Positions 34,172 to 64,000 of a stretch of 64,000 nucleotides of DNA are shown piece by piece; within the stretch, counting starts at the first letter, position 1; each line of letters begins with the position of its first letter. The stretch comes from Euglena gracilis (lineage: Eukaryota). The notes beneath the pieces were generated by a model. It worked only from the letters and a program-made list of their open reading frames with translations. It ran no database searches and was not told the origin of the DNA. The position numbers and the translations under genes are program-made. The stretch is taken from assembly GCA_039621445.1 (NCBI GenBank), contig CP154954.1:35263703-35327702 (forward strand), written 5' to 3'.

Positions 34172-35613
34172 CACCCAAATCTACTCATTTCTTGCAACCA
34201 ACATTCCGGCTGCATGTTTTTCTTACCATTAAACCACGACTATCATGAAACCAACGGGTCCCCTGTCTTTGGAGGCCTCCTGGAACACCCATTCGGTTAC
34301 TCGGAGTAAGGCCCAAATTGGTCCATTTTTACATGGTAACCTGGGCTGACCTGGTAAATGTCCCCAGGAATGGTCGAATGCACCCATCTAAATATCCTCG
34401 TTTCTTGCACCAACATTCCGCTGCATGTTTTTCTTACCATTAAACCACGACAATCATGAAACCAACGGGTCCCCTGACTTTGGAGGCCTCCTGGAACACC
34501 CATTCGGTAACTCGGAGTAAGGCCCAATTTGGTCCATTTTTACATGGTAACCTGGGCTGACCTGGTAAATGTCCCCAGGAATGGTCGAATGCACCCATCT
34601 AAATCTGCTCATTTCTTGCAACCAACGTTCCTGCTGCATGTTTTTCTTACCATTAAACCACGACAATCATGAAACCAACGCTGACATTTGTGGACTCCTG
34701 GAACACTCATTCGGTTACTAGGAGGACGGCCCCATTTGGTCCATTTTTACATGGTAACCTGGCCTAACCTGCTAAACGTCCCCCGTAATCGGCGAATCCA
34801 CCCATCTCAATCTGCTCATTTCTTGCACCCAAATTCCGGCTGCCTGTTTTTCTTACCATTAAACCACGCCAATCACGAAACCAACGGGTCCCCTGACTTT
34901 GGAGGCCTCCTGGAACACCCATTCGGACTCGGAGTGAGGCCCAAATGGTCCATTTTTACATGGTAACCTGGGCTGACCTGGTAAATGTCCCCCGGAATGG
35001 TCGAATGCACCCATCTAAATCTGCTCATTCTTGACCAACCGGCTGCATGTTTTTCTTACCATTAAACCACGACAATCATGAAACCAACGGGTCCCCTGAC
35101 TTGGAGGCCTCCAACACCCATTCGGTTACTCGGAGTAAGGCCCAATTGGTCCATTTTTACATGGTAACCTGGGCTGACCTGGTAAATGTCCCCCGGAATG
35201 GTCGAATGCAATCTAAATGCTCATTTCTTGTACACCTTCCGGCTGCATGTTTTTCTTACCATTACCACGACAATCATGAAACCAACGGGCCCCTGACTTT
35301 AGAGGCCTCCTGGAACACCCATTCGGTTACTCGGATTAAGGCCCAATTTGGTCCATTTTTACATGGTAACCTGGGGACCTGGTAAATGATTGTCGGAATG
35401 GTCGAATGAATCTAAATGCACTCATTTCTTGCAAGAAATGAGCATGTTTTTCTTACCATTAAACCACGACTATCATGAAACCAACGGGTCCCCTGACTTT
35501 GGAGGCCTCCTGGAACACCCATTCGGTTACTCGGAGTAAGGCCCAAATTGGTCCATTTTTACATGGTAACCTGGGCTGACCTGGTAAATGTCCCCCGGAA
35601 TGGTCGAATGCAC
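34172..35613 (+). repeat. Satellite block 4, forward, noisy or degenerate (~7 monomers)
   Basis: Forward monomers with many indels and embedded reverse-strand fragments, ending GGTCGAATGCAC at 35613. Confidence 0.9.
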
Positions 35614-44600: not shown

Positions 44601-46492
44601 GTTGTTTAATGGTAAGAAAAACATGCAGCCGGAAGGTTGGGTGCAAGACATAAAAAAACCAAAAACAAAAAGACAAAAAAACAAAAAAAAACAATCACAA
44701 AACAAATACAAAAAACAAAAAAAAACCAAGTGGGCGTGCAAGAAATGAGCAGATTTAGATGGGTGCATTCGACCATTCCGGGGGACATTTACCAGGTCAG
44801 CCCAGGTTACCATGTAAAAATGGACCAAATTGGGCCTTACTCCGAGTAACCGAATGGGTGTTCCAGGAGGCCTCCAAAGTCAGGGGACCCGTTGGTTTCA
44901 TGATTGTCGTGGTTTAATGGTAAGAAAAACATGCAGCGGGAATGTTGGTTGCAAGAAATGAGCACATTTAGATGGGTGCATTCGACCATTCCGGGGGACA
45001 TTTACCAGGTCAGCCCAGGTTACCATGCAAAAATGGACCAAATTGGGCCTTACTCCGAGTAACCGGATGGGTGTTCCAGGAGGCCTCCAAAGTTAGGGGA
45101 CCCGTTGGTTTCATGATTTTCGTGGTTTAATGGTAAGAAAAACATGCAGCGGGAATGTTGGTTGCAAGAAATGAGCACATTTAGATGGGTGCATTCGACC
45201 ATTCCGGGGGACATTTACCAGGTCAGCCCAGGTTACCATGCAAAAATGGACCAAATTGGGCCTTACTCCGAGTAACCGGATGGGTGTTCCAGGAGGCCTC
45301 CAAAGTCAGGGGACCCGCTGGTTTCATGATTGTCGTGGTTTAATGGTAAGAAAAGCATGCAGCGGGAATGTTGGTTGCAAGAAATGAGCACATTTAGATG
45401 GGTGCATTCGACCATTCCGGGGGACATTTACCAGGTCAGCCCAGGTTACCATGCAAAAATGGACCAAATTGGGCCTTACTCCGAGTAACCGGATGGGTGT
45501 TCCAGGAGGCCTCCAAAGTTAGGGGACCCGTTGGTTTCATGATTTTCGTGGTTTAATTGTAAGAAAAACATGCAGCGGGAATGTTGGTTGCAAGAAATGA
45601 GCACATTTAGATGGGTGCATTCGACCATTCCGGGGGACATTTACCAGGTCAGCCCAGGTTACCATGCAAAAATGGACCAAATTGGGCCTTACTCCGAGTA
45701 ACCGGATGGGTGTTCCAGGAGGCCTCCAAAGTTAGGGGACCCGTTGGTTTCATGATTTTCGTGGTTTAATGGTAAGAAAAACATGCAGCGGGAATGTTGG
45801 TTGCAAGAAATGAGCACATTTAGATGGGTGCATTCGACCATTCCGGGGGACATTTACCAGGTCAGCCCAGGTTACCATGTAAAAATGGACCAAGTTGGGC
45901 CTTACTCCGAGTAACCGAATGGGTGTTCCAGGAGGCCTCCAAAGTCAGAGGACCCGTTCGTTTCATGATTGTCGTGGTTAAATGGTAAGAAAAACATGCA
46001 GCGGGAATGTTGGTTGCACGAAATGAGCAGATTTATATGGGTGCATTCGACCATTCCGGGGGACATTTACCAGGTCAGCCCAGGTTACCATGTAAAAATG
46101 GACCAAGTTGGGCCTTACTCCGAGTAACCGGATGGGTGTTCCAGGAGGCCTCCAAAGTTAGGGGACCCGTTGGTTTCATGATTTTCGTGGTTTAATGGTA
46201 AGAAAAACATGCAGCGGGAATGTTGGTTGCAAGAAACGAGCACATTTAGATGGGTGCATTCGACCATTCCGGGGGACATTTACCAGGTCAGTCCAGGTTA
46301 CCATGCAAAAATGGACCAAATTGGGCCTTACTCCGAGTAACCGGATGGCTGTTCCAGGAGGCCTCCAAAGTTAGGGGACCCGTTGGTTTCATGATTTTCG
46401 TGGTTTAATGGTAAGAAAAACATGCAGCGGGAATGTTGGTTGCAAGAAATGAGCACATTTAGATGGGTGCATTCGACCATTCCGGGGGACAT
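35614..46492 (-). repeat. Satellite block 5, reverse
   Basis: Starts GCCTCCAAAGTC at 35614 and ends CCGGGGGACAT at 46492. Interrupted at ~44649-44735. Confidence 0.97.
44649..44735. other. A-rich low-complexity insertion in the satellite
   Basis: CATAAAAAAACCAAAAACAAAAAG... between two copies of GTGCAAGA (44641-44648 and 44736-44743). Confidence 0.85.
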
Positions 46493-46494
46493 AA

Positions 46495-49400
46495 GGAGTA
46501 AGGCCCAATTTGGTCCATTTTTACATGGTAACCTGGGCTGACCTGCTAAATGTCCCCCGGAATGGTCGAATGCACCCATCTAAATGTTCTCATTTCTTGC
46601 AACCAACATTCCTGCAGCATGTTTTTTATCTAATACCACGACAATCATGAAAACCCACGGGTCCCCTCTGACTTTGGAGGCCTCCTGGAACACCCATTCG
46701 GTTACTCGGAGAAAGGCCCAATTTGGTCCATTTTTTACATGGTAACCTGGGCTGACCTGGTAAATGTCCCCCGGAATGGTCGAATGCAACCCATTTAAAT
46801 GTGCTCATTTCTTGCAACCAACCTTCCCGCTGCATGTGGTTCTTACCATTAAACCACGACAATAATGAAACCAAAAGGTCCCCTGACTTTGGATGGAGGC
46901 CTCCTGTAACACCCATTCGGTTCGTCGGAGTAAGGCCCAATTTGGTCCATTTTTACATGGTAACCTGGGCTGACCTGGTAAATGTCCCCCGGAATGGTCG
47001 AATGCACCCATCTAAATCTGCTCATTTCTTGCAACCAACATTCCCGCTGCATGGTTTTTCTTCCATTAAACCACGACAATCATGAAACCAACGGGTCCCC
47101 TGACTTTGGAGGCCTCCTGGAACACCCATTCGGTTACTCGGAGTAAGGCCCAATTTGGTCCATTTTTACATGGTAACCTGGGCTGACCTGGTAAATGTCC
47201 CCGGTATGGTCGAATGCACCCATCTAAATCTGCTCATTTCTTGAAACCAACATTCCCGCTGCATGGTTTTCTTTACATTAAACCCACACCATCCTTAAAC
47301 CCACGGGTTCCCCTGACTTTGGAGGCCTCCTGGAACACCCATTCGGTTAACGGGGAGTAGGGCCCAATTTGGTCCATTTTTACATAGTAACCTGGGCTGA
47401 CCTGGTAAATGTCCCCGGGAAAGGTCGAATGCACCCATCTAAATCTGCTCATTTCTTGAAACCAACATTCCCGCTGCATGGTTTTTCTTTCATTAAACCA
47501 CGACAATCATGAAACCAACGGGTCCCCTGACTTTGGAGGCCTCCTGGAACACCCATTCGGTTACTCGGAGTAAGGCACAATTTGGTCCATTTTTACATGG
47601 TAACCTGGGCTGACCTGGTAAATGTCCCCGGGAATGGTCGAATGCACCCATCTAAATCTGCTCATTTCTTGCAACCAACATTCCCGCTGCATGGTTTTTC
47701 TTCCATTAAACCACGACAATCATGAAACCAACGGGTCCCCTGACTTTGGAGGCCTCCTGGAACACCCATTCGGTTACTCGGAGTAAGGCCCAATTTGGTC
47801 CATTTTTACATGGTAACCTGGGCTGACCTGGTAAATGTCCCCCGGAATGGTCGAATGCACCCATCTAAATGTGCTCATTTCTTGCAACCAACATTCCTGC
47901 TGCATGTTTTTTCTACCATTAAACCACGACAATCATGAAACCAACGGGTCCCCTGACTTTGGAGGCCTCCTGGAACACCCATTCGGTTACTCGGAGTAAG
48001 GCCCAATTTGGTCCATTTTTACGTGGTAACCTGGGCTGACCTGGTAAATGTCCCCCGGAACGGTCGAATGCACCCATCTAAATGTGCGAATTTCTTGCAA
48101 AAAACGTTCCCGCTGCATGATTTTCTTACCATTAAACCACGAAAATCATGAAACCAACGGGTCCCCTGACTTTGGAGGCCTCCTGGAACACCCATTCGGT
48201 TACTCGGAGTAAGGCCCAATTTGGTCCATTTTTACATGGTAACCTGGGCTGACCTTGTAAATGTCCCCCGGAATGGTCGAATGCACCCATCTAAATGTGC
48301 TCATTTCTTGCAACCAACATTCCCGCTGCATGTTTTTCTTACCATTAAACCACGACAATCATGAAACCAACGGGTCCCCTGACTTTGGAGGCCTCCTGGA
48401 ACACCCATTCGGTTACTCGGAGTAAGGCCCAACGTGGTCCATTTTTACATGGTAACCTGGGCTGGCCTGGTAAATGTCCCCCGGAATGGTCGAATGCAGC
48501 CATCTAAATGTGCTCATTTACTGCAACCAACATTCCCACTGCATGTTTTGCTTACCATTAAACCACGACAATCATGAAACTAACGGGTCCCCTGACTTTG
48601 GAGGCCTCCTGGAACACCCATTCGGTTACTCGGAGTAAGGCCCAATTTGGTCCATTTTTACATGGTAACCTGGGCTGACCTGGTAAATGTCCCCCGGAAT
48701 GGTCGAATGCACCCATCTAAATGTGCTTGTTTCTTGCAACCAACATTGTCCTGCATGTTTTTCTTACCATTAAACCACGACAATCATGAAACCAACGGGT
48801 CCCCTGACTTTGGAGGCCTCCTGGAACACCCATTCGGTTACTCGGAGTAAGGCCCAATTTGGTCCATTTTTACATGGTAACCTGGGCTGACCTGGTAAAT
48901 GTCCCCCGGAATGGTCGAATGCACCAACTAAATGTGCTCATTTCTTGCAACCAACATTCCCGCTGCATGTTTTTCTTACCATTAAACCACGACAATCATG
49001 AAACCAACGGGTCCCCTGACTTTGGAGGCCTCCTGGAACACCCATTCGGTTACTCGGAGTAAGGCCCAATTTGGTCCATTTTTACATGGTAACCTGGGCT
49101 GACCTGGTAAATGTCCCCCGGAATGGTCGAATGCACCCATCTAAATGTGCTCATTTCTTGCAACCAACATTCCCGCTGCATGTTTTTCTTACCATTAAAC
49201 CACGACAATCATGAAACCAACGGGTCCCCTGACTTTGGAGGCCTCCTGGAACACCCATTCGGTTACTCGGAGTAAGGCCCATTTGGTCCATTTTTACATG
49301 GTAACCTGGGCTGACCTGGTAAATGTCCCCGGTATGGTCGAATGCACCCATCTAAATGTGCTCATTTCCTGCAACCAACATTCCCGCTGCATGTTTTTCT

Positions 49401-52400
49401 TACCATTAAACCACGACAATCATGAAACCAACGGGTCCCCTGACTTTGGAGGCCTCCTGGAACACCCTTTTGGTTACTCAGAGTAAGGCCCATTTTGGTC
49501 CATTTTTACATGGTAACCTGGGCTGACCTGGTAAATGTCCCCCGGAATGGTCGAATGCACCCATCTAAATGTGCTCATTTCTTGCAACCAACATTCCCGC
49601 TGCATGTTTTTCTTATCATTAAACCACGACAATCATGAAACCAACGGGTCCCCTGACTTTGGAGGCCTCCTGGAACACCCATTCGGTTACTCGGAGTAAG
49701 GCCCAATTTGGTCCATTTTTACATGGTAACCTGGGCTGACCTGGTAAATGTCCCCCGAATGGTCGAATGCACCCATCTAAATCTGCTCATTTCTTGCAAC
49801 CAACATTCCCGCTGCATGTTTTTCTTACCATTAAACCACGACAATCATGAAACCAACGGGTCCCCTGACTTTGGAGGCCTCCTGGAACACCCATTCGGTT
49901 ACTCGGAGTAAGGCCCAATTTGGTCCATTTTTACATGGTAACCTGGGCTGACCTGGTAAATGTCCCCCGGAATGGTCGAATGCACCCATCTAAATGTGCT
50001 CATTTCTTGCAACCAACATTCCCGCTGCATGTTTTTCTTACCATTAAACCACGACAATCATGAAACCAACGGGTCCCCTGACTTTGGAGGCCTCCTGGAA
50101 CACCCATTCGGTTACTCGGAGTAAGGCCCAATTTGGTCCATTTTTACATGGTAACCTGGGCTGACCTGGTAAATGTCCCCCGGAATGGTCGAATGCACCC
50201 ATCTAAATGTGCTCATTTCTTGCAACCAACATTCCGCTGCATGTTTTTCTTACCATTAAACCACGACAATCATGAAACCAACGGGTCCCCTGACTTTGGA
50301 GGCCTCCTGGAACACCCATTCGGTTACTCGGAGTAAGGCCCAATTTGGTCCATTTTTACATGGTAACCTGGGCTGACCTGGTAAATGTCCCCCGGAATGG
50401 TCGAATGCACCCATCTAAATGTGCTCATTTCTTGCAACCAACATTCCCGCTGCATGTTTTTCTTACCATTAAACCACGACAATCATGAAACCAACGGGTC
50501 CCCTGACTTTGGAGGCCTCCTGGAACACCCATTCGGTTACTCGGAGTAAGGCCCATTTTGGTCCATTTTTACATGGTAACCTGGGCTGACCTGGTAAATG
50601 TCCCCCGGAATGGTCGAATGCACCCATCTAAATGTGCTCATTTCTTGCAACCAACATTCCGCTGCATGTTTTTCTTACCATTAAACCACGACAATCATGA
50701 AACCAACGGGTCCCCTGACTTTGGAGGCCTCCTGGAACACCCATTCGGTTACTCGGAGTAAGGCCCAATTTGGTCCATTTTTTACATGGTAACCTGGGCT
50801 GACCTGGTAAATGTCCCCCGGAATGGTCGAATGCACCCATCTAAATGTGCTCATTTCTTGCAACCAACCTTCCCGCCTCATTTTTTTTCTTACCATTAAA
50901 CCACGACAATCATTGAACCAACGGGTCCCCTGACTTTGGAGGCCTCCTGGAACACCCATTCGGTTACTCGGAGTAAGGCCCAATTTGGTCCATTTTTACA
51001 TGGTAACCTGGGCTGACCTGGTAAATGTCCCCCCGGAATGGTCGAATGCACCCATCTAAATGTGCTCATTTCTTGCAACCAACATTCCCGCTGCATTTTT
51101 TCTTACCATTAAACCACGACAATCATGAAACCAACGGGTCCCCTGACTTTGGAGGCCTCCTGGAACACCCATTCGGTTACTCGGAGTAAGGCCCAATTTG
51201 GTCCATTTTTACATGGTAACCTGGGCTGACCTGGTAAATGTCCCCCGGAATGGTCGAATGCACCCATCTAAATGTGCTCATTTCATTTCTTGCAACCAAC
51301 ATTCCCGCTGCATGTTTTTCTTACCATTAAACCACGACAATCATGAAACCAACGGGTCCCCTGACTTTGGAGGCCTCCTGGAACACCCATTCGGTTACTC
51401 GGAGTAAGGCCCAATTTGGTCCATTTTTACATGGTAACCTGGGCTGACCTGGTAAATGTCCCCCGGAATGGTCGAATGCACCCATCTAAATGTGCTCATT
51501 TCTTGCAACCAACATTCCCGCTGCATGTTTTTTCTTACCATTAAACCACGACAATCATGAAACCAACGGGTCCCCTGACTTTGGAGGCCTCCTGGAACAC
51601 CCATTCGGTTACTCGGAGTAAGGCCCAATTTGGTCCATTTTTACATGGTAACCTGGGCTGACCTGGTAAATGTCCCCCGGAATGGTCGAATGCACCCATC
51701 TAAATGTGCTCATTTCTTGCAACCAACATTCCGGCTGCATGTTTTTCTTACCATTAAACCACGACAATCATGAAACCAACGGGTCCCCTGACTTTGGAGG
51801 CCTCCTGGAACACCCATTCGGTTACTCGGAGTAAGGCCCATTTGGTCCATTTTTACATGGTAACCTGGGCTGACCTGGTAAATGTCCCCCGGAATGGTCG
51901 AATGCACCCATCTAAATGTGCTCATTTCTTGCAACCAACATTCCCGCTGCATGTTTTTCTTACCATTAAACCACGACAATCATGAAACCAACGGGTCCCC
52001 TGACTTTGGAGGCCTCCTGGAACACCCATTCGGTTACTCGGAGTAAGGCCCAATTTGGTCCATTTTTACATGGTAACCTGGGCTGACCTGGTAAATGTCC
52101 CCCGGAATGGTCGAATGCACCCATCTAAATGTGCTCATTTCTTGCAACCAACCTTCCGCTGCATGTTTTTCTTACCATTAAACCACGACAATCTCATGAA
52201 ACCAACGGGTCCCCTGACTTTGGAGGCTCCTGGAACACCCATTCGGTTACTCGGAGTAAGGCCCAATTTGGTCCATTTTTACATGGTAACCTTGGCTGAC
52301 CTGGTAAATGTCCCCCGGAATGGTCGAATGCACCCATCTAAATGTGCTCATTTCTTGCAAATAAACCTTTCGGCTGCATGTTTTTCTTACCATTAAACCA

Positions 52401-53247
52401 CTACAATCATGAAACCAACGGGTCCCCTGACTTTTCAGGCCACCTGGAACACCCATTCGGTTACTCGGAGTAAGGCCCAATTTTGGTCCATTTTTACATG
52501 GTAACCTGGGCTGACCTGGTAAATGTGCCCTCGAATGATAGAATGCACCCATCTAAATCTGCTCATTTCTTGCAAATAAACCTTTCGGCTGCATGTTTTT
52601 CTTACCATTAAACCACGACAATCATGAAACCAACGGGTCCCCTGACTTTGGAGGCCTCCTGGAACACCCATTCGGTTACTCGGAGTAAGGCCCAATTTGG
52701 TCCATTTTACATGGTAACCTGGGCTGACCTGGTAATGTCCCCGGAATTGTCGAATGCACCCATCTAAATGGGCTCATTTTCTTGCAACAACCTTCCGGCT
52801 GCATGTTTTTCTTACCATTAAACCACGACATCATGAAACCAACGGTCCCCGCTTTGATGGCCTCCTGGAACACCCATTCGGTTACTCGGAGTAAGGCCCA
52901 ATTTGGTCCATTTTTACATGGTAACCTGGGCTGACCTGGTAAATGTCCCCGGAAAGGGTCGAATGCACCCATCTAAATGTGCTCATTTCTTGCAACCAAC
53001 CTTCCGGCTGCATGTTTTTCTTACATTAAACCACGACAATCATGAAACCAACGGTCCCCTGACTTTGGAGCCTCCTGGAACACCCATTCGGTTACTCGAG
53101 TAAGGCCCAATTTGTCCATTTTTACATGGTACACTGGGCTGACCTGGTAAATGTCCCCCAAAAGGTCGAATTGCACCCATATAAATCTGCTCATTACTTG
53201 CAACCAACCTTCCGGCTGCATGTTTTTCTTAACAGTGAAACCACGAC
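46495..53247 (+). repeat. Satellite block 6, forward, degenerating toward the retroelement
   Basis: Starts GGAGTAAGGCCC at 46495. Indel density rises after ~52.2 kb. The last clear motif, AAACCACGAC, ends at 53247; satellite-like remnants persist to ~53315. Confidence 0.95.
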
Positions 53248-53534
53248 CCATTTCTCCTGGGCTCGGACTCTGAGTAACCAATTTGGTCATTTTTATCAAC
53301 CTGGTGACCAGGAAACCTTGCAAGCATTTTGGTACAAGTTTGCTCCAAATTGAGGAAGCGTGAATCGGAATGCCGATCCATGCAAGATGGTTTCTCGGTT
53401 GGATGACCGTTTTCTGCGTTGTGTGGAAAAGCCAACCGCGGAAATTCCTCACCACCGTGGAAACCCCCACCAAGTCACTCCACCAATTGCAACCGTCTCA
53501 AATGCGGTGAGCGCTTGCGGGTCAACTCCGGAAT

Positions 53535-54467
53535 GTGGAGGAGTCCCAAGGAAATCTTGCCCAAGAATTACACTTGGTTTCTGAAAAGTTGCCACACTTG
53601 GAAGATTTTTTCCCGTTACCCAAACGCATTAGGCATTTGGAGAATGAGGTTGACCGTATTGCGGCCAACTCCAGTTGGTGGAACATTTGGAAGAAACGGT
53701 GCATGACTTGTCCCGCGAGTCTGATAAAATGTCCCCTCCGGTACCGGTTGTGCCACCACCTACCGCGGTAAGCGCTGCGGTTGGTATTCCAAATGTCCCG
53801 GAATCGCGTTCTCAAATTACCATTTCCGGAGTAGGAATCCCTACATCCATCCACCGCGAATTTGGTACAACCACCCGCGAAAACGCGAATTGTACCACCT
53901 TTGCATTTGCCAACACCACAAACTCATTTTTCACACACATTTCCGATGAGGAAATGACCCCCACTGGAAAATTCGAGTCTCCACCAAGAAATTCAAACTT
54001 CCAACCTTGTACGAGTTATGAGCCAACACCACACACCTGGTATTGGTCATGTGTCGCATTGGCGCTCATCCCATTCACGAAAGGGGTCTGGATTAACGAA
54101 TTACCCATTGGGTTTTCGGCGGGAAACCCCCGCCCACCGGGAGAATTTTCACCATTTTTTCGCAAATCCCGCAGGAAAATCCTGCAACCTTACACTTGGT
54201 GCGGGAAATCCTGCACGGGTTAGACATGGAGCGGAAAAAATCCGCGAAACGCGTTTGGTGTTAAGAATTACCCTGACCCAAACCCCTGGAATACCACCGA
54301 GGGTCAGCGGGTTACACAGAGAGACTTCAAGGGCACCATCGCAATCGCGAACAAGGTGAAGCCCCAATGGGACGGGGATCCAACCACATGGAGACAATTT
54401 TTTCTGGACTGGGAGGGCTATTGCACTCAAGTGACCCACCCAAGACCCGAATCCCGAGGTAGTCAAG
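53535..54467 (+). pseudogene. gag: Probable frameshifted N-terminal part of gag
   Basis: Overlapping + strand fragments join by frameshifts: a coiled-coil-like stretch (EESQGNLAQELHLVSEKL...RIRHLENEVDRIAAN / LVEHLEETVHDLSRE), a Pro-rich stretch, then KPQWDGDPTTWRQFFLDWEGY at ~54359-54421. The last resembles the retrotransposon capsid N-terminal motif and lies one frameshift upstream of the 54468 ORF. Confidence 0.55.
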
Positions 54468-55733
54468 ATGGAATTCATCGATTGCCTACCGAGGGAGGAG
54501 CGAGAACGCGCACGTAATTTGGTGATACGTAATGGCGTATCATTCGATGACCTGGTTGAGCAATACGCTTCAACCAATTCAAGTTTGGTCACCAGGATTA
54601 CCCTGGAGAAGAAGTGGCGACAAAGCGCGCCATCGGATCGCAAAGGGAAATCCATTGACCGTGGGTATGGCAAATGGTTAGCACTTGCTTCCGAAGTTGA
54701 TGAACTCAGCGAGAAGCAAATGCGCGAACAATTCGATGCGGTGTTGTTGCATTTCACACCATCCCTCGTGAAGGATATCCATCGCGAGGATTTGTTAGGG
54801 CATGAGATGACTCTTGCCCAACGTTGGAATTATGTGTCAAAGCAACTCAAGCTCACACAAGTTTTGGGACAAATTCAGTCCGCCTTCCAAACGCATCCCA
54901 CCGCGGGAATCCCTGCGGGTGCGGTTAACGCGTTGCAAAAATCACCCATGTCACCAAGATCACCCACTACGGGATCGAAAACGCGGAATCAGCGTTCTTC
55001 GGACCAAGGCACGGATAAACTGTGCTTTTTGTGCAACAAATCTGGTCACATGTCTCGGGAATGCCCGAATCCCGATGCGCGAAAGCGTATTGGAAGCCCA
55101 AGGGGCTCGACCTCCTCACGGAGATCGGGTTCCTCAGCGTTTTCACGTCAATCGGGAGTTTCACGGTCTTTGGAGAACCGCTTTAGCAGTAGTAGGCCCA
55201 AGTCACCATCGCGTGATGGTCGGGAAACCCGTCCTTCTCGCGGTCGGTCACCTGGCCCCCCTGCCCGAAAACGGGATTTCAATCGCGATTCTTCACGATC
55301 TCGTTCGCGAAGTGGATCATCCTCTTCACGCGAGTCAACGGGGAAGTCCCGATACACCGGTCATGGTCGACGGGAAACCCGTTCACCACGACGGTTTGAC
55401 GGTCGAACGGAATACCGTTCCCCTCGTTATGCGGAATCCCGCCACAAATCCCGTTGTTCACTCTTCGGTTCCAAAGATCACCACGCATCCAAATGTCCCA
55501 GATCTCGTTCCCCCCCCCGGCCCGGTACGGACCGTGGTTACTCCTCCAACCGGCAAAAGGTCGGTTTCAAGATATCTTGTTTGGAGGAGGACACCCCGGC
55601 TTCGGGCAGGGAGGGGGATGAGACCTCGGACGGGGAATTTAATGAGGCCCGAATGGCGGTGCGCTCATTGAATTCCATCTATTCCACCAAAAAGTCCGTT
55701 GCCGGCTATGCGGCCGGTTCGGACTTGGAGTAG
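54468..55733 (+). CDS. gag: Gag (capsid-like region and nucleocapsid zinc knuckles); true start probably upstream
   Basis: CFLCNKSGHMSREC is a CX2CX4HX4C knuckle (55023-55064). A second degenerate knuckle CSLFGSKDHHASKC lies at 55455-55496, with an RS-rich tract between. Ends in a TAG in frame with pol. Confidence 0.88.
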   Translation: MEFIDCLPREERERARNLVIRNGVSFDDLVEQYASTNSSLVTRITLEKKWRQSAPSDRKGKSIDRGYGKWLALASEVDELSEKQMREQFDAVLLHFTPSLVKDIHREDLLGHEMTLAQRWNYVSKQLKLTQVLGQIQSAFQTHPTAGIPAGAVNALQKSPMSPRSPTTGSKTRNQRSSDQGTDKLCFLCNKSGHMSRECPNPDARKRIGSPRGSTSSRRSGSSAFSRQSGVSRSLENRFSSSRPKSPSRDGRETRPSRGRSPGPPARKRDFNRDSSRSRSRSGSSSSRESTGKSRYTGHGRRETRSPRRFDGRTEYRSPRYAESRHKSRCSLFGSKDHHASKCPRSRSPPRPGTDRGYSSNRQKVGFKISCLEEDTPASGREGDETSDGEFNEARMAVRSLNSIYSTKKSVAGYAAGSDLE

Positions 55734-55769
55734 GGGAGCCCGAGGTCCGAGGGCACGGACCTCTGGGCT
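55731..55769 (+). promoter_or_regulatory. Candidate gag-pol UAG readthrough signal (stop plus 3' stem-loop)
   Basis: TAG GGG then AGCCC-GAGGTCCG-[AGGGCA]-CGGACCTC-T-GGGCT, a 13-bp stem with one bulge. gag (54468) and pol (55779) share a frame with no other stop between them. Confidence 0.65.
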
Positions 55770-58700
55770 GATGAACAGATGGAGGTAAGACCTGATCAAC
55801 CTTACCCCCCCTGCCCATCCGCCTTCACGGTCAGTACCCGGAATTATTTCGGGTCCCCTAACCCCCACTCCACATTTCCGCTCGGAATGCTGAGCAAAGT
55901 AGGAAAGGGTTCATGGGAGAGCTGGCATGCAAACGTATTTCCGCCAGACCCTTCACTTTGCGTACCACCAATGGAATTACTCGTCCAAGCGGAAATCCGC
56001 ATCCAAAATTTCTCCACTAAAGTTAAAATTCTCATTGACACTGGTTGTCGCATTGCACTGCTCTTTCGGTTGGGGTTGATACCGACCCCGCTCTTGGTAA
56101 GCGCCAAGAAACCGATCAAAATTACAACCGCGGATAACACCTCCATGTGTGGTGGTGATTTGGGATGTGTGCTCGGAATACTCTTGCCCATCATTCCGAA
56201 GCATCACTCACAACCCCCACAATTACAACATTTCACCAATATTTGGGGTTACGAGTCCGGAATTCACGGGTCTGACGTAATTTTGGGATACCCATTTTTA
56301 CGCCAGTACCGATTGGTTGTGGATTGCCACTCCCACGGTTTGCGCACAGCACCCACCACTTCATTGACACCCAAACCACCATCACCGTTGTCATCCACTA
56401 TGATGACCACCGCTTTGCCCACACCGTTACCCACAATGGCAACACCGTTACCCACCACACCAACAACCGTTTTCCACACCCGGGGTACGGAGAAAGCCTC
56501 CCCCCTGCCCAATGACACACCAACATGCGTTCCACATGAGGCAGGGCAAGCGAGTAGCGGTACCCCCGCCGTTTCACTGGGTTACAAGACGAAAGCCCAA
56601 AGGCCTGAAGTAATTACGGTGTCGAGTAGTCGCCCAGCTACACCACCACTCCGTTTCCCACCAGTTGTGCCGAATCCAGGCACACCTGTACAAGACTCCC
56701 CGGCTAATGCCATCGACACCCACTTTCACGCACACCCGTCACACCATCACACTTCCTTCCAATGTGTGCACTGCAGGAGAATTTCCAGCCAATCGGATTT
56801 CGATTGTGGATGTTTAGTTCAAAATCCGACACTAATCGCAATTCCGAAAACGGAATCCACCCCCCATGATACACTTGGTTGTAGCCCTCAATGCGCGGAG
56901 ATACACCGAGTACTCCAACAACGCGGATTAGCCTCGTTGTTCGGAAACGCGAAAAGCGCGATTCCTAATTACAATCGCGATCACACTTGGTACGGATTTG
57001 ATGCGGAATGGGGAAACCCCCAACCTGTCCAAACTCCCTTGGGATTAACCCTTGTGGTAGTGGAAGACAGCCCGCATGTTTGTGGATCCATTCATTGTTT
57101 TTCTACCCTTCAACCCGAAAATCGGGTGCATGAATACGCGAAACGTGTATGGAATGCTTTCAATTTCGGTCAATATCGCATTTTGGAACGATGGTTTTCA
57201 AAAATTGCGACATTGGCAGATTCTTTTGATTTGGCATTGGAAATCGATGCCTTCTCATCCAATGCACATGCCCGTTTGCCACGTCATTGGTCACAACACT
57301 CCAACACATTTGATAAATTTTGGGGTGATACGGTGTTATGGATGCACCCCCCCCAAAACTTATCGAATGTGCGGTTGAGAAAATTCTGCGGGATGAAGCC
57401 CGTGGAGTTTTTCTCATACCCATCATTCCGGAAGCGGAATGGTTCACCCAACTATCGTATGTATGTTTTTATTGGTGGGATTTACCCACTAATGTACCGA
57501 TTTTTGAGGATTTTTGTGGTAAAATATTACCACCCTTGCAAGAAATCATTTTTCGCGTATGTTTCTTCGATGCATTCGGAATGTCCGAATTCGCGGTGCC
57601 GAGGAAGCTCGGTAGCCCCAGGGATACAATGGCGGTTTCCGCAGTCATCGAGAGTGCAGGTCAGCATCCTAAATCAGCCGAATTCTGTTCGCGGATTACC
57701 CGCGAATTCCACGGTGTGCTGGAAAATCCAGTATACGCGTGCGACATCGACCCCGCGATACGCGGTCCGTTCGGTGTTTGCAAGATCGAGCTTAAGGATG
57801 GAGCCAAACCAATGCACCGAAAATTTTTTCGTTGTTCGGGAGAACGCGAACAAGCTCTCAATGAAATGATTGAGAAGCTTATTCAGCGAGTGGATTGTAC
57901 CCTCGAAAAGCGAGTGGACATCCCAGGCATTTGTTGTTCCTAAACCCCCAGACCCCTCAGGTCAGAAGAAATGGAGGCTGGTGCTGGATTACCGGTACCT
58001 GAACTCCCAAACAAGGGATGATCCCTTCCCGCTCCCCTGATCGAGGATTTGATCACCAAACAATCGGAAAACCGGTTGTGGTCAATTTTCGATCTGGAGG
58101 ACGGTTTTCACCAAATGCACTTACACCCTGACTCCCAACCATACACGGCATTCGTGACATCCAAGGGTGTGTACCAATGGACGGTACTCCCCATGGGTGT
58201 TAAGAATGGCCCAGCCATGTTTCAGCGCATGATACAATGGGTTCTACGCGATTTACCGTTTGCCATTGTGTACATTGATGATGTGCTGGTGGGAACACCA
58301 CCACCATCCGCAAAATCGAGCGAGGATATCCTCGTCACACACTTCCACCATGTTTGCGCGGTATTAACCGCTTTTCAAAAACATGTGCTTTTCGCGAAAG
58401 GCGCGAAAATGCATTTGTTTCGGATACTTATAAAATTTTGTGGTCACATCCTCAGCAATGGACAGCGGAAAGCCGCTCCGAGTAAACTCGAAGCCATTAA
58501 GAAATGGACCCCTGAGGTAATCAAAACGATTACTCACCTCAAAGGATTTTTGGGATTAGCCCAATACTACGCGATTTATATGAAGGACTTCGCGAAAATC
58601 GCGGTGCCCCTCACCAAACAGCTCAAAAACCGGGCTGTTGACAACACCAAAGTCATTTGGGATGACCAAATGCGCGAGGCCCTTGAGAAAATCAAGGTTT

Positions 58701-60830
58701 TGCTTTTGGAGAATGTTGTCCTCGAAATCGCGGACCCGTACAAACCATACGTGTTGGAAGTCGACAGCAGCGATTACGCTGTTGGCGGAGTTCTTAGCCA
58801 GCATAATGCGGCGAATGAGCTCCGACCTGTGGCTTTCTTCAGCAGAAAGTTACAGGGCGACGATGGAAAAGGTCAAGTCAAATGGAGTATACGCGAGAAG
58901 GAAACCTACGCAATCGTGCTTATACTCCAGAAATTCCGAAGCTGGGTAGCCAGCAGTCTCGTCCAGATCCTCGTCAAGACCGACCATGAGAGTCTCCAAC
59001 ACTGGTACACCGAGGATTTGAACAAGGCCATGTCATCGGTCGGAAGGCGATGCAGATGGCATGAGTTCTTGAGTCAATTCAACCTTGTGGTTATCTATAC
59101 CCCTGGTCACACACAAAAAGTAGCGGATCCGCTCAGTCGGGCCCCTTGGTATTACCCTGGGAACCCGGATGAGGGAGACGCGACTTTTCATGGAAGTCAG
59201 GAAGCTGACGACTACGCACGTCGAAACGACGCTGCGGATAATCTTTTGGATTCTTTTCCCGTTTCACAACTATTCCTGGTCGCACCAGTGCGAGGAAGGC
59301 GCCGACGTGGAAGCACGTCCGGGCCCCGGCGTATTACGCGCACGGAGTCCCCTTCCCCACTGTTCTTTCGCGAATGGGATTATAGTCGTGATCCGGTGTA
59401 TGACACCATTGTCACCAGACTTCGTAATGGCGAAGTGCTGGACAATTACACTCTTTCACCTTTACGGTTGGTTTTTCGCAATGAATCGGGTTACAAATAT
59501 TGTATCCCCCAGGACCTGGTTGATGATGTGATTTTGTGTTATCACAACCATGGTCACCCTGGGGCCCCCAAACTTCTTTCGTTGGTGGGCCGCAGGTACT
59601 GCACAACCCTGAGCGAGAAAGAGCTTTACTCACGCTGTTTGCGAATAGCGCAACGGTGTCAAATTTGTCAAGCGGTAAAACCCCGCAGAGGTACCCCCCC
59701 TGGTACGATGGACTTTTTCCCCGTACCCCCTGACATTTTTACATCCCTCTGCATGGATTTTCTGGAATTAGGAATCTTTCAGAGGAACTTACGACATAAT
59801 TTACTATTACGTTTTTGTTGTCGTCTGCAGGCTTAGTTGGTACATTGTAGCCATTCCATGCCAGAAGTCAGGGTTGACTGCCCAAAGTTTGGCAGCTATA
59901 TTTTTGGAGAAATGCATTTGCTTGATGGGTTTACCGAATGAAATTGTGAGTGATCAAGACCATTTGATTTCTTCAAGGTTTTTCACCACTTTGTGCGGTT
60001 TACTCGGAATCGAGCAACATTTTTCCATTATATACCGACCCAAAGGCAATGGTAGAGCCGAGGCAGCCGTGAAATCCGTCGTGAATATGCTTCGCCTTTC
60101 ACTGGCTGACTCGCGCAGCAACTGGATATCAGTTCTACCATGGTCTTTGTTTTATATCAATACCCTACCAGGGTTGGTTTTACCTCACTCCCCCTATAAA
60201 TTAGTTTTCGGACGGGACCCTCCGGCCATAGGGGATGTCCCTTCGGAGAGACCCGCCCGAACGAGTGTCAGTTGCGAGACCTGGTTTGCGGAAGTAGAAA
60301 ATCTACGTTCTGCAGTCCAGAAGCGCGTGACTGATATTCATGCAGCAAAACGGAAATCGTTTTTGCAGAATTTCAAGTCACCTGTGTATAGTCCTGGCGA
60401 CCGCGTGTGGGTACGGAATAGCCGTACTCGCATGCAGTCTTCCAAGCTGGACCCCCTCTGGCTCGGCCCCTGTGAAATCCTAGAAAGACTAGGTACCAGC
60501 GGGCGTTACAAGGTTGCATTACCGAATGGTGTTGAGGACGTTCATATGGACGACTTCAAACCATACCTGTCGCCACCGGATGGGAAACCCATCCCGTGTT
60601 TGCACTTCAAACCCCGTTCCAGATTACCTGAGACGGACGACTTTGTAGTCGATAAAATTATCGATCACAAAATCGACAAAGGTATGCACCTTTGGAAGGT
60701 CCGCTGGAAAGGGTATGGGCCCGAGGAGGACACTTGGGAGCCAGCAACCAGTTTTGTTGGGTATGTCCAGCAAGATTGGAAGCTGTGGAACAAGAAACAT
60801 AACATTGATGTTTCCATGACAAGTTTTTGA
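55734..60830 (+). CDS. pol: Pol polyprotein PR-[insert + MTase-like]-RT-RNase H-IN-chromodomain, interrupted by four small frameshifts (~57350, ~57890, ~58038, ~59771)
   Basis: Track ORFs 55779-57869, 57338-57943, 58049-59836 and 59874-60830, plus a bridging frame at 57891-58038 (WIVPSKSEWTSQAFVVPKP...KWRLVLDYRYLNSQTRDDPFPLP), join into one canonical Pol. Confidence 0.93.
55980..56320 (+). other. Retropepsin aspartic protease domain
   Basis: KILIDTGC (DTG at 56037-56045) and the C-terminal DVILGYPFL motif. Confidence 0.9.
57160..57580 (+). other. Dam/DIRS-type N6-adenine DNA methyltransferase-like domain within Pol
   Basis: EIDAFSSNAHARLPRHWS...NTFDKFWGDTVLWMHPP / (frameshift in the C-run) PKLIECAVEKILRDEARGVFLIPIIPEAEWF. 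By eye this matches the IDxFAS...DAF...W...[N/F]PP..LI..V..KI..D.A..I.I.P.W....WF pattern of DIRS-type and phage Dam-like MTases. Confidence 0.75.
57770..58460 (+). other. Reverse transcriptase domain (two small frameshifts)
   Basis: WRLVLDYRYLN, FDLEDGFHQM, TAFVT, LPMGVKNGPAMFQR, YIDD (58271-58282) and FCGHIL. Confidence 0.97.
58745..59140 (+). other. Ty3/gypsy RNase H domain
   Basis: EVDSSDYAVGGVLSQ, RPVAFFSRKL, EKETYAIV, TDHESL, RW..FLSQF and ADPLSR. Confidence 0.95.
59540..60570 (+). other. Integrase (HHCC, D,D35E core, GPY/F-like module)
   Basis: HNHGH...CQIC (59543-59668), MDF (D at 59756), VSDQD (D at 59952), NGRAE (E at 60060, 35 residues after the second D), and KLDPLWLGPCEI. Confidence 0.95.
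60636..60830 (+). other. C-terminal chromodomain of the integrase
   Basis: FVVDKIIDHK...LWKVRWKGYGPEEDTWEP, a canonical chromodomain with aromatic residues F, W and Y retained. Confidence 0.93.
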
Positions 60831-60850
60831 GAACGCATGGGAAACCCATG

Positions 60851-60901
60851 TTGTTTTCTCTTCTTTTTATCATTGATTCTTATCATTCTTTCTTTCCGCA
60901 G
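60851..60901 (+). promoter_or_regulatory. Polypyrimidine tract plus CAG: candidate 3' splice (or trans-splice) acceptor for the downstream ORF
   Basis: TTGTTTTCTCTTCTTTTTATCATTGATTCTTATCATTCTTTCTTTCCGCAG. The first downstream ATG is at 60993. Confidence 0.5.
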
Positions 60902-60992
60902 ACTTTTTACCAAATAATACTCAAGCGGTTACCCTCACACACCTTACAACCAACAACCCAAACATCCCACCGTACCGACCCCGGGCTGTATT

Positions 60993-62259
60993 ATGCTGCC
61001 CGGCGGAAGGGAGCCAGGCGGAGGACCGCCTTACCCCCCCACCACTCACCCTCAACCTGACCAGTATGCGTACCGATACGGTACGCAGCCACCTGCACGG
61101 ACTGCGGCTCAGGGAAACCCTGAAGCCAGCAGCAGTAGCAGGATGACCCAGATGCCCGCGGAAGCGCGGCCATCTCAGCCATCAGGCTCTCGTCGCCTCC
61201 CACCGTATGCGGGTGTGATGATCCACCGCACGGCGGAGACGATGAACCGGGTTATGCGTATGAGCGCAAACCCGGCACCAGACCAACTCACACAGGCATT
61301 GTGGGATGACCACTGCCGTAAAGTTTTGACCATCGCGAATACCCCTCCAGCCCTGTGGTGTATGTGCGCCCAGGCGACGATGACCGGTCTGGTGTATTAC
61401 ACCGACCCGGACGCGTCGGGATTCGCGGCAGACATTACCATGCGTGACCTGGGCGTGGAAGTCCCGCCACAGGTCGCGCAGGCAGGTACCACCAGTTGGC
61501 ACTTACACTGCACATTTTCGTGCTCACTCCCCCGGATTACCCGAGGAAGAGACGGTGGAAGCACCTGTCCGGAGTGAACACCCACGTGTGAAAGAAAGTA
61601 TTTTTCGATCCCCTGAGCGCATGCCCCGGCGGGATTATCCTGCGCAGGAGCCTGTGTCTCAGTATACCGTCTCTGGGGATTACCCCCAGGAGGCGCCAAT
61701 GCCACGGGATCAGTACGTATATCCACCTCAACCCCACCCAACCATACCTGACCCTATCCCACGACGTCCTGCGGAGGGAAATCCTCCCCCGACGTCTGAC
61801 TCTGCCCGAAGCGCTCGTCCGCGGGAAGCCGCGACAGCGCCTCGTGCGGCACCAGTTCCCCCGGCACGGGATGAACCCGTTAACCCGTGGACTGGTCGGC
61901 CGTTCGAGACTGAGGAGGACCGTCAACAGTATGAATATGCTGTGACGATCCAACGACAAATCGCACGTCGCCCCCCTGTTTCCGCTGGCCAGGGATACCC
62001 TGCCCGGGCGGAAATGACACGGGAAGAGCGCCAGCAGTATGATGCTGCTGTGTCGGCTCTCACAGGAGTCCCAGCTCCATCACGGTTAAGTCAACCAGCG
62101 CGACAGCGGGACGTGGCTGTGGCGGAAGCGCCACCAGCACGACCCACAAGCTCTGCCGCCGGCAAACGTGACCGCGGCCCGGAAAATCTGACGCCGCAGC
62201 CACAACGCCGCTCGCCGAGGTCGGAAAATCCGCCCGGCGGCGATGCACGTCGACGCTGA
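60993..62259 (+). CDS. Extra ORF downstream of pol, N-terminal Pro-rich part (two overlapping frames, 60993-61577 and 61444-62259, probably one frameshifted ORF); function unknown
   Basis: Overlapping same-strand ORFs with similar Pro/Ala/Arg/Gln-rich composition. A switch near 61480 (EVPPQVAQ / QVPPVG) is plausible. Confidence 0.5.
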
Positions 62260-64000
62260 GGAGGAAGCTCCGCCAGCGCCCGACGTGACGGCAGAACGGG
62301 CACGTCGGGAAACCCGACCATCCCCAGTCGCACCGGTTTACTCGAATCGTGGTGATGCTGAGCAGGAATTTGCTCGAACACCAAGCACGGAATCCGTGAC
62401 TTATCCTGTGTATACAGAAGAAGACCCAGAATACTGGGAATATTGGGACCCATATCGGGCGACGATAGAATGGCTGTCCAACACGAAGGGCAAGGGTAAA
62501 GGAAAAGGCAAGGGTAAGGGTAAAGGTAAAGGCCAGGAGAAAGGTGGGAAAGCCCCATCTGGGAAAGGCGGAAAACCCGCTGGACCAGCTCCAGGCAAAG
62601 GCGGAAAATCTGCCGGACCCCCGACAGGAAAAGGCGGAAAAGCCGCCGACCCTTCGAAAACGAAGGATTACGACGTTAACCAGGTGTTCGACTACCTGGA
62701 TGAGATCTGGCCGAAAATTAAAGAAAATCTTCAGCAGTACACGCGTGCAGGTAACGTCATCCACCGACCACCGGAAGCGGTGCTCGAAGTGGTACAGGAT
62801 CGTATGTACGATCACTGCAAGCGATTTTTCTACAGTTCTGAACTTCATGCATTTGAGGGATACCCTCATTCGAATGAAGTCGTCCTGGACCGGATGCCCG
62901 GTTTCTGGGAGCTGTGGTTCTGGTTGGGATACCCCTGCCAGAACTTCGGCATCTTTACTGACCGAAACGGTCAGTCGTACGTGAACTGTTTGGGAACATG
63001 TCCTGACGATGAAACGTTCGTCGCACAGTTGAAGGAAATCTTCAACCACATGTATTCCGTCAGCGCACTGGGAATCCAGTGGAAGTATTACCCCCTGCCG
63101 GAGAAACTCCAGGTGCAGGCTGCGGTAATGTTCACGAACAACCTCCAAGTATTCTTGGATAGCATGTATGGCATGCTGTTCAAGGTACTGGACGTGGACC
63201 TCGCCTATCCTCAACGATACAAGCTGGAATGCCAGTTTTGCAAAGAGCAACACATTGTTGATTTCTGGGGTTTCGGTGAGCGTGGAAAACCGCCTCCGAC
63301 TGCCGAGAATGCCGGCAGCCCACTGACCAGGAGATTTCTCCTGCATCAGTGCCGAAAGCCCCAGATCGGAACGCAAGATCGAAAGGTGCTGAAACAGCAC
63401 CGGCAGAAAATATTTCTGCTTCAACAATACTGGCACAGGGCGTGGATTACCTACGTCCTGGAGGTGTACATTTATTTCCTGGAGTACATGACCACTGATG
63501 TGAATATTCACAGGAAGTGGTTACCTCGGGGATACACCGAGGAAGAAGCCAGACCGAATGACCAAGACCGACGCAGGATGAACCTGCGGCCGGACTGGTA
63601 CGAGGCCGAAATCGGTCTTCCGAAGCACATGGAAAACCAGTTCGGGAATATCCTGATCTGGGAAGATTTCCAGTCCTTCTACGCAGCAGACGTGGAAAAA
63701 CAGCCACGTTATGCCTTGCCGCTGCCAGCCTTCCTGGAAGACACAGGAGAACGTGGCATGAGCTGGGATCGGCGAATGCAGTGGGAAGACCTCTGCCGTA
63801 ACAACGAGGACGAGCCAGAGCCCTTACCCGGAAGCTGGGTAAGACCGTCATGGCCACCCCCATATCCCAACTCTGACAGGAGCGAAAGTATTAGCTTTTT
63901 CCGCCTGTCAGACGCACAGGGGTGCTACAGAACCGGGGAAGACCCGCGTTCTGCAGCACAGCTACACACAGAGGACTCACCTCCGGAAGCGGAGGAGACG
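62243..64000 (+). CDS. Extra ORF, C-terminal part, about 586 codons and open at the window end; unknown function; absent from the ORF track
   Basis: Manual translation from ATG 62243 (frame open from 62192) shows no stop to 64000: MHVDAEEEAPP...EYWEYWDPY...(KG)8 QEKGGKAPSGKGGKP...DYDVNQVFDYLDEIWPKIKENL...ECQFCKEQH...HQC...WEDLCRNN. Confidence 0.8.
   Translation, partial: MHVDAEEEAPPAPDVTAERARRETRPSPVAPVYSNRGDAEQEFARTPSTESVTYPVYTEEDPEYWEYWDPYRATIEWLSNTKGKGKGKGKGKGKGKGQEKGGKAPSGKGGKPAGPAPGKGGKSAGPPTGKGGKAADPSKTKDYDVNQVFDYLDEIWPKIKENLQQYTRAGNVIHRPPEAVLEVVQDRMYDHCKRFFYSSELHAFEGYPHSNEVVLDRMPGFWELWFWLGYPCQNFGIFTDRNGQSYVNCLGTCPDDETFVAQLKEIFNHMYSVSALGIQWKYYPLPEKLQVQAAVMFTNNLQVFLDSMYGMLFKVLDVDLAYPQRYKLECQFCKEQHIVDFWGFGERGKPPPTAENAGSPLTRRFLLHQCRKPQIGTQDRKVLKQHRQKIFLLQQYWHRAWITYVLEVYIYFLEYMTTDVNIHRKWLPRGYTEEEARPNDQDRRRMNLRPDWYEAEIGLPKHMENQFGNILIWEDFQSFYAADVEKQPRYALPLPAFLEDTGERGMSWDRRMQWEDLCRNNEDEPEPLPGSWVRPSWPPPYPNSDRSESISFFRLSDAQGCYRTGEDPRSAAQLHTEDSPPEAEET

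Follow-up and report, generated by a model that had tools for sequence, protein, structure and literature searches.

We analysed a stretch of 64,000 nucleotides of the Euglena gracilis genome (GenBank assembly GCA_039621445.1, contig CP154954.1, positions 35,263,703 to 35,327,702 of the forward strand; this whole stretch is called the window, and positions are counted from its first nucleotide). A tandem array of a 213-bp satellite fills the first 53 kb and is followed by the coding sequence of a retrotransposon, which reads in order as a candidate 5′ region, a gag gene, an in-frame UAG with a hairpin behind it, a pol gene encoding protease (PR), a Dam-like domain, reverse transcriptase (RT), RNase H (RH), integrase (IN) and a chromodomain, and finally what we read as two further open reading frames (ORFs), the last of which runs out of the window. 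We consider it probable that these features belong to one copy of a Ty3/gypsy element of the long terminal repeat (LTR) type, both Dam-carrying and chromodomain-bearing, at the edge of the 53-kb satellite. The features that carry this interpretation are:

54226..55733, plus strand: gag (ORFs, zf-CCHC match, frame views, motif coordinates and composition)
55731..55769, plus strand: in-frame UAG, GGG spacer and 13-bp hairpin, a candidate readthrough signal
55734..60830, plus strand: pol in five frame segments (tblastn of intact relatives, frame views, no internal stops)
56037..56045, plus strand: protease active-site Asp-Thr-Gly (motif; the region aligns to the protease of the relatives P0091, P0119 and P0053)
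56763..56813, plus strand: Cys-x2-Cys ... Cys-x-Cys motif between the protease and the Dam-like domain
57174..57580, plus strand: Dam-like (PF05869) domain, split by a frame change in a C8 run at about 57345
57764..59100, plus strand: reverse transcriptase and RNase H (Pfam; YIDD at 58271-58282)
59543..60600, plus strand: integrase and SH3-like domain (Pfam; HHCC 59543-59668, D 59750-59761, D 59949-59960, E 60048-60062)
60636..60743, plus strand: chromodomain (Pfam Chromo; Phe, Trp and Tyr at presumed aromatic-cage positions)

Pol, chromodomain and Gag

Pfam recognises RVT_1, two RNase H models, Integrase_H2C2, rve, SH3_Tf2-1 and Chromo in pol, with E-values from 1e-6 to 3e-24. The order of the domains is collinear with that of intact relatives throughout, and the catalytic motifs (DTG, YIDD, and HHCC with the D, D and E residues) are all kept. 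Searched as a family profile, the RT/RNase H region has the RT/RNase H of Ty3 as its best relative of solved structure (E 1e-78), which together with the PR-RT-RNase H-IN order confirms the gypsy identity that a first-pass annotation, made from the sequence alone, had proposed. At least 375 relatives of pol were found.

The chromodomain integrase of the same annotation is likewise borne out, as the Chromo match (E 1.3e-10) lies after rve and SH3_Tf2-1 and the best matches of solved structure are the chromodomains of MPP8 and HP1 (E about 2e-9). The alignment contains a Phe, a Trp and a Tyr at what we take to be the methyl-lysine cage positions. Such a caged chromodomain would tether the integrase to methyl-lysine chromatin of the H3K9me type (histone H3 methylated at lysine 9), and a targeting of this kind fits the position of the element at a satellite edge, here with one copy beside one array. 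The heterochromatin residence suggested by the first-pass annotation refers to this single copy and would apply to the family only as a possibility.

Chromoviruses are the chromodomain-containing Ty3/gypsy elements, and the element resembles them in its PR-RT-RH-IN arrangement and in the cage-type chromodomain at the integrase C-terminus. It differs from the plant chromoviruses in its RT/RNase H, which falls into a separate clade in a tree of 75 rows (quick IQ-TREE run, LG+G4, supported by the Shimodaira-Hasegawa-like approximate likelihood ratio test, SH-aLRT, only, with named database hits as references). There, the window is placed in a clade of 39 rows of unnamed proteins, which a branch with 100% SH-aLRT parts from the clade to which all 13 named hits belong: chromodomain elements of grasses (Paspalum among them) and sequences from Chara, Silene, Telopea, Phytophthora, a chytrid and two fishes. 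Further differences from chromoviruses are the Dam-like insert and, possibly, the two extra ORFs.

The gag ORF at 54435-55733 (stop to stop, standard code) contains a zf-CCHC match of 23.7 bits against a cut-off of 20.8. Gag had been described as RS-rich with two zinc knuckles; the Arg/Ser-rich tail holds (43.5% Arg plus Ser over the 186 residues 215-400), as does one canonical CCHC knuckle (55023-55064), but the second knuckle (55455-55496) is imperfect, with Phe replacing the second Cys. Towards the N-terminus the frames become less straightforward, with a candidate ATG at 54226 in frame 1, frame 2 open from 54224 to 54517, and frame 0 from 54435 to the terminal TAG. This ATG is the only candidate opener of the N-terminal gag frame and is out of frame with it across an A6 run, and the shift near 54435 lies among C runs. 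No capsid family was detected in gag by Pfam or by a PDB sequence search, and the latter returned weak matches to the knuckles only (E about 0.4-1) together with two unrelated chance matches.

The gag-pol junction

The junction of UAG and hairpin was found as the first-pass annotation had it. The gag frame meets a TAG at 55731-55733 and then stays open as an ORF of 711 codons, and a 13-bp hairpin with one bulge occupies 55737-55769, 3 nt past the stop. Folded as a 39-nt segment, it reaches -25.2 kcal/mol (z-score -4.17, with none of 200 shuffles as stable), and in a 76-nt context its z-score is -3.03, with 1 of 200 shuffles as stable; among 3550 windows of 36 nt between 53316 and 64000 it is the second most stable. 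The three relatives that extend upstream of the protease (P0091, P0119 and P0053) all have predicted ORFs starting no more than about 15 codons from the UAG, so the gag/pol border is shared by the family and the stop is no nonsense mutation peculiar to this copy. A sense reading of UAG was rejected, since the 3186 in-frame codons contain one TAG, placed at the gag/pol border, and both pol and ORF-X end in TGA.

These features suggest that the junction is a readthrough site. Gag would end at the UAG, and some ribosomes, aided by the G after the stop and by the stable hairpin 3 nt further on, would pass it to give a Gag-Pol product comprising protease, Cys motif, Dam-like domain, RT, RNase H, integrase and chromodomain. 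Gag-pol readthrough of the gammaretrovirus type relies on a UAG, a G at position +4 and a downstream structure. The element resembles it in the UAG followed by G, in the stable downstream RNA structure and in having pol in the gag frame, and differs from it in its spacer of 3 nt, as against about 8, and in that a hairpin is predicted, with no pseudoknot. It counts against this interpretation that the hairpin, coming from a single sequence, has no covariation support; Rfam gave no match at E up to 1 over 53200-64000.

A second hairpin (55692-55727; -23.4 kcal/mol, z-score -4.63) lies directly before the gag UAG, giving structures on both sides of the stop, and a donor-like GAG/GTAAGA occurs at 55783-55792, just past the junction hairpin. 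The strongest local hairpin of the element is found elsewhere, at 61441-61481 (-31.5 kcal/mol, z-score -6.69, 0 of 200 shuffles as stable), in the zone in which ORF-X passes from frame 0 to frame 1, and further strong hairpins lie at 60403-60436 (z-score -5.58) and 63922-63959 (z-score -5.66). Hairpins near the other ORF junctions were considered as recoding signals and rejected, because the GC-rich ORF-X region confounds the ranking; the hairpin before the ORF3 ATG is not significant (z-score -2.45).

A Dam-like domain between protease and reverse transcriptase

Dam-carrying LTR retrotransposons have been described in a preprint (Fernandez-Moreno et al., bioRxiv 10.64898/2026.05.21.726589, May 2026). 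According to its text, there are five Dam-LTR lineages, two of them chlorophyte-related, one ichthyosporean, one from Pyropia and one from Euglena, and LTR elements bearing a chromodomain account for 30.9% of the transposable elements that carry Dam. The LTR elements are inferred there to have captured the Dam domain from DIRS-like elements, and the EpiLTRs of Cymbomonas and Euglena add a cytosine methyltransferase. The criterion for Dam was a search with PF05869 by hmmsearch at E 1e-5.

In the window, about 455 amino acids separate the protease from the RT, with the Dam-like stretch inside. A methyltransferase-like insert of about 480 amino acids had been noted at this place; tblastn and the PF05869 scores support its methyltransferase-like nature and give the slightly smaller size. 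Among the intact relatives, P0053 (36.8 bits) and P0019 (35.4 bits) exceed the Pfam cut-off of 28.1 bits for PF05869, and P0091 reaches 20.7 bits. For the relative P0065, an AlphaFold model (mean predicted local distance difference test score, pLDDT, 66.5, with about 80-89 in the Dam region) matches a phage DNA N-6-adenine-methyltransferase in BFVD (E 6.8e-8), at rank 45, behind 44 matches that are nearly all reverse transcriptases. A hidden Markov model (HMM) of the family, built from six relatives and run over 128 proteins, detected the domain in 13, that is, in its six seeds and in seven more. Where at least 300 amino acids are present upstream of the RT anchor, the domain was detected in 5 of the 8 window-clade rows and in 0 of the 10 rows of the named-reference clade, and the PR-Dam-RT layout is therefore a trait of the lineage. 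The Cys-x2-Cys ... Cys-x-Cys motif in front of the domain has similar counterparts in P0091 and P0119.

Two points detract from this assignment. Three of the eight window-clade members with room for the domain gave no HMM match, and the window itself scores poorly: its broken ORF has no Pfam match at E 0.01 in the insert region, and the fragment 57126-57353, split off by the frame break, reaches 18 bits (E 0.0024) against PF05869 (Dam), which is under both the Pfam cut-off and the 1e-5 threshold of the preprint.

The element shares with the chromodomain-bearing Dam-LTRs of the preprint's text a Ty3/gypsy pol, a PF05869-like Dam domain and a C-terminal chromodomain. It is a further example of this known kind, and the suggestion of a possibly undescribed lineage has to be given up to that extent: the combination of Dam domain and chromodomain was already on record, and in 30.9% of the Dam-carrying elements. 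We found no other literature on LTR elements with both domains beyond bioRxiv 10.64898/2026.05.21.726589. The less ordinary points of the element are a catalytic motif that is degenerate in most of its lineage, the readthrough-type junction and the two extra ORFs. The main text of the preprint makes no mention of the domain order PR-Dam-RT, of a junction of the readthrough type, of ORFs behind pol or of satellites; the words protease, satellite and readthrough, and words beginning with centromer-, have no occurrence in that text. With the DIRS1-like tyrosine-recombinase retrotransposons, as far as that text describes them, the element shares the family of the Dam-like domain, and it differs from them in its DDE integrase, its gypsy-type pol and the location of the domain between protease and RT.

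Frame changes and the state of the copy

A readthrough Gag-Pol had been claimed, and its domains and UAG junction are present, but it is not continuous as assembled. Pol is distributed over frame 0 at 55734-57353 (with the tblastn alignments of intact relatives covering 55752-57353), frame 2 at 57347-57886 (57347-57877), frame 0 at 57888-58031 (57852-58037), frame 2 at 58040-59770 (58022-59770) and frame 0 at 59799-60830 (59799-60818), where it terminates at the TGA 60828-60830. Gag and pol together contain at least five frame changes, near 54435, 57345, 57888, 58033 and 59780, and one more, in the A6 run, if gag opens at 54226. They speak against a functional element, since a copy broken in this way would be unable to make Pol unless the breaks are assembly errors.

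Dead retrotransposon copies tend to build up beside satellites, and the frame changes could be real mutations in such a copy, an inactive fossil in heterochromatin. This explanation, which is compatible with our favoured one as far as the family is concerned, has in our opinion a considerable chance of being correct, albeit clearly below even. It would account for the breaks in gag-pol and for one more in ORF-X, for the second zinc knuckle without one of its Cys, for the degenerate motif IV of the Dam-like domain and for the location next to the satellite. It does not sit well with the absence of internal stops from the 3186 codons of the inferred frames (the gag UAG aside), with the intact catalytic motifs of protease, RT and integrase, or with a CpG observed/expected ratio of 0.9-1.12 over 53316-64000, in which no depletion of CpG as a signature of decay is seen. 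Furthermore, the protein P0001, which is independent of the window, is 97% identical over 441 amino acids, and most of the breaks that can be localised lie in homopolymers (A6, C runs and C8), which are the usual sites of long-read assembly errors. Among the sites in pol, one lies in a C8 run, one in a C4 run and one beside a short G context, and one could not be localised to a run. With the breaks centred on homopolymers and nonsense codons absent, errors of long-read assembly are a better fit than prolonged neutral decay. We also considered programmed frameshifting at the C8 run and rejected it, as intact relatives read straight across the Dam-like domain.

Coding sequence downstream of pol

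Beyond the pol stop, the plus strand continues as follows:

60831..60992, plus strand: spacer after the pol stop, 162 nt
60993..62259, plus strand: ORF-X (ATG 60993, TGA 62257-62259; ORFs, codon model, frame views)
62243..64000, plus strand: ORF3, open at the window end (ATG 62243; homologues and alignments)

A third large ORF with more than 3 kb of sense coding sequence had been reported here. The coding sequence is present, at about 3 kb, but it is divided among three ORFs, each in a frame of its own (60918-61577, 61384-62259 and 62192 to beyond 64000). A codon model trained on gag-pol assigns it to frame 0 over 60930-61400, to frame 1 over 61410-62100 and to frame 2 over 62130-64000, each time scoring clearly apart from the two competing frames. 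We read these three frames as two putative genes, ORF-X, which would change from frame 0 to frame 1 near 61480-61530, and ORF3, which overlaps the end of ORF-X by 17 nt. In the spacer, a CAG comes after pyrimidine runs at 60854-60868 and 60886-60897, an arrangement that may represent a splice-acceptor-like sequence. ORF-X is rich in Pro, Arg and Ala and has no Pfam family.

ORF3 begins with a Lys/Gly-rich stretch, followed by a conserved core, YPQ..Y...C..C....DFWGF, and later by an H-x-C motif. An exhaustive HMMER search returned seven homologues and a search with the family alignment one protein, P0128, whereas a search for shared words found none among 7999 candidates, probably as a result of Lys/Gly-rich low-complexity words swamping the candidate lists. 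P0128 is identical to ORF3 at 232 of 281 positions (83%) without gaps and extends 38 residues beyond the final complete codon of the window. The distant members P0123, P0124, P0126 and P0127 have about 23-26% identity and share the YPQ/DFWGF core and the H-x-C; the Lys/Gly-rich stretch is also present in P0123 and P0127. Among the four close homologues, P0122 and P0125 each have matches to the window that are spread over two frames, which suggests decayed copies of a repeat.

No assignment to a known family or fold was obtained. Pfam searches relaxed to E 1 gave sub-threshold noise only, for ORF-X and the upstream ORFs as well as for ORF3 and its homologues, and a profile of ORF3 had no match among PDB sequences. 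The structure model of ORF3 is poor (mean pLDDT 45.5, with only residues 125-215 or so at 72-84), and Foldseek, with a limit of E 0.001, returned nothing for it from PDB or BFVD; in PDB, a zinc ribbon of NrdR (30 residues) came first and was discounted at E 2.2. By its alignments, ORF3 represents a rare conserved family with no known fold. An env-like third ORF, as in errantivirus-like elements, was rejected as well, there being no Pfam or fold match and no transmembrane-like segment in the part within the window (the highest 19-residue Kyte-Doolittle means are 1.16 for ORF3 and 0.91 for ORF-X). Antisense to ORF3, the minus strand contains an open frame of 486 codons (62060-63520), which is probably a by-product of composition, since the homologues match the plus strand only and the codon model shows no preference for the minus strand.

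That ORF-X and ORF3 belong to the same element as gag and pol is, in our judgement, somewhat better than an even bet. They would then most likely be accessory genes, possibly expressed from processed RNA. Several observations weaken this view and favour a composite locus, in which a Dam-chromovirus copy, now without its 3′ LTR and perhaps also without the 5′ one, lies beside an unrelated gene or repeat supplying ORF-X and ORF3. No direct repeat longer than 33 nt is present in 53200-64000 and no LTR pair is visible, the 3′ end lying outside the window; a primer-binding site (PBS) and a polypurine tract (PPT) could not be demonstrated, the window containing no tRNA genes for comparison; and no physical link of ORF-X or ORF3 to other copies of the element was found. 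Pol ends shortly past the chromodomain, with nothing fused to it, in the window as well as in both relatives that reach the pol end (P0010 and P0018), which stop about 14-17 residues past a shared conserved post-chromodomain motif. In addition, the distant ORF3 homologues are stand-alone proteins of 332-689 amino acids with their own Met start, ORF3 has far fewer relatives than pol (seven plus one versus at least 375), and the GC content of the ORF-X region is 60%, versus 49.5% for pol.

We nevertheless consider a composite locus unlikely, if only somewhat more so than a dead copy. ORF-X and ORF3 are on the same strand as pol and are separated from it by no more than the short spacer, and their codon usage fits that of gag-pol. 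Neither a PPT-like purine run nor an LTR-like repeat marks an end of the element after pol: between pol and the window end no purine run of 11 or more lies outside coding sequence (one lies inside), and nothing between the pol stop and the window end repeats the 5′ region. Frame-broken copies of ORF3 elsewhere suggest a repeat and not a single-copy host gene, and a break exactly at the pol stop would have to be a coincidence.

Extra coding sequence 3′ of the standard pol domains is also a feature of the EpiLTRs, LTR elements that, like the one described here, have both a chromodomain and a Dam domain (bioRxiv 10.64898/2026.05.21.726589, main text). The extra ORFs of the window differ in that they are separate from pol and of no known family, and no DNA-methylase (cytosine) family was detected in any ORF of the window (Pfam, E up to 0.01 or 1). 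The plant Ty3/gypsy elements of the Retand group are similarly extended between pol and the 3′ LTR, by several kb of sequence that is coding in part; they are described as non-chromoviruses whose extra ORFs are antisense and contain a TRP28 domain (PMC11963269). Here, the extra ORFs are on the sense strand and belong to a different, unnamed family.

If the downstream ORFs were unrelated to the element and the copy dead, the locus would hold an ordinary fossil of a known class. At the other extreme, which is possible but which we regard as doubtful, all breaks would be assembly errors and the window would contain an intact member of an unsampled Dam-chromovirus lineage with a pseudo-methyltransferase (its catalytic Asn lost in most members), UAG readthrough and two sense genes before the 3′ LTR, with ORF3 founding a new Cys-x2-Cys ... 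His-x-Cys family. This would be a five-module retrotransposon at a satellite edge, more complex than the elements of the preprint's main text. In any case, the copy adds a candidate pair of accessory genes of no known family to a class described only in 2026. In more general terms, the adaptation of mobile DNA to the epigenomes of its hosts is illustrated by retrotransposons that bring chromatin tools of their own.

Is the Dam-like domain a methyltransferase?

Motif IV of the domain is His-Pro-Pro in the window (57339-57353). In ten relatives it is NPP in three, HPP in three, and NPH, CPP, HAP and LAP in one each, while the flanking residues and an N-terminal DAF(A/S)S motif are conserved. In this respect the lineage is unlike the elements of the preprint, in whose text Asn-Pro-Pro is kept in almost all DAMs (bioRxiv 10.64898/2026.05.21.726589). 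Since most members of the lineage, the window included, lack Asn-Pro-Pro, we consider it more likely that the domain, which is inherited across the RT lineage, would have a structural role or bind nucleic acids than that it would write N6-methyladenine (6mA).

The alternative, put forward for Dam-LTRs in the preprint, in which the domain methylates adenines of the cDNA or of new insertions and thereby brings the copy into permissive, 6mA-marked chromatin, strikes us as improbable here. It could draw on the good conservation of the whole domain, including the DAF(A/S)S-type motif, on the three relatives of ten that keep Asn-Pro-Pro, and on the raised 6mA reported on Dam-LTR insertions in two ichthyosporeans and Euglena (bioRxiv 10.64898/2026.05.21.726589). 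The same preprint also states that eukaryotic DAMs expressed in E. coli gave no rise in 6mA, and the triplet is missing from the window and from seven of the ten relatives. A chromodomain of the heterochromatin-reading type at a satellite edge would, moreover, be an odd companion for a strategy of permissive chromatin, so that the combination found here sits uneasily with that model. A lineage that keeps the Dam fold while dropping the catalytic triplet bears on the question of whether such domains write 6mA at all.

The 5′ region and the satellite array

The sequence upstream of gag consists of:

53316..54225, plus strand: 5′ non-satellite region before gag, candidate 5′ LTR and leader
53248..53315, unstranded: degenerate final satellite piece (53263-53315 aligned to the monomer)
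1..53247, unstranded: 213-bp satellite array, as context (Tandem Repeats Finder rows, GC-skew sign changes)

The 5′ region has no Pfam match and no second copy inside the window, and its codon signal is weak, with frames poorly resolved by the codon-usage model. It contains a TGG-led stretch at about 54197-54215 and may correspond to a 5′ LTR followed by a leader with the PBS. A homologue of ORF3, P0121, has a weak tblastn match at 54100-54261 (E 0.001, 34% over 56 residues), which is maybe due to chance.

Tandem Repeats Finder places arrays of the 213-bp unit over 1-53247, with 87-98% matches. Alignment of the array end to the monomer shows that the final good monomer terminates at 53247 and that 53263-53315 is a 53-nt remnant, 92.5% like the monomer over 53 columns. 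Non-satellite DNA begins at about 53316. The 53-kb satellite, the start of non-satellite sequence at 53316 and the adjacency of the two had all been anticipated by the first-pass annotation. The last full monomer (53002-53247) has six 1-nt gaps relative to the reference monomer, five of them in the window row and most in short G or C runs, and indels over most of the array amount to 0-1%; this points to decay at the array edge or to a locally poorer assembly. An assembly chimera, in which satellite and element were misjoined or the element stitched together from different copies, is very improbable: satellite edges are difficult to assemble and the gaps in the last monomer exceed the indels of most of the array, but the junction runs through a progressively degenerate monomer and a remnant, a gradual decay of the final units that looks like a natural array edge and not like a mis-join, and the pol domains are collinear with those of intact relatives.

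Within the array, the orientation of the units flips near 19805, 34175, 35613 and 46494, as seen from sign changes of the GC skew and from Tandem Repeats Finder. The block at 34177-35613 is more diverged, with 87% matches and 5% indels. At 44649-44730 the satellite is broken by some 80 nt of A-rich low-complexity sequence, which may be what is left of a poly(A)-like tract or an artefact of the assembly.

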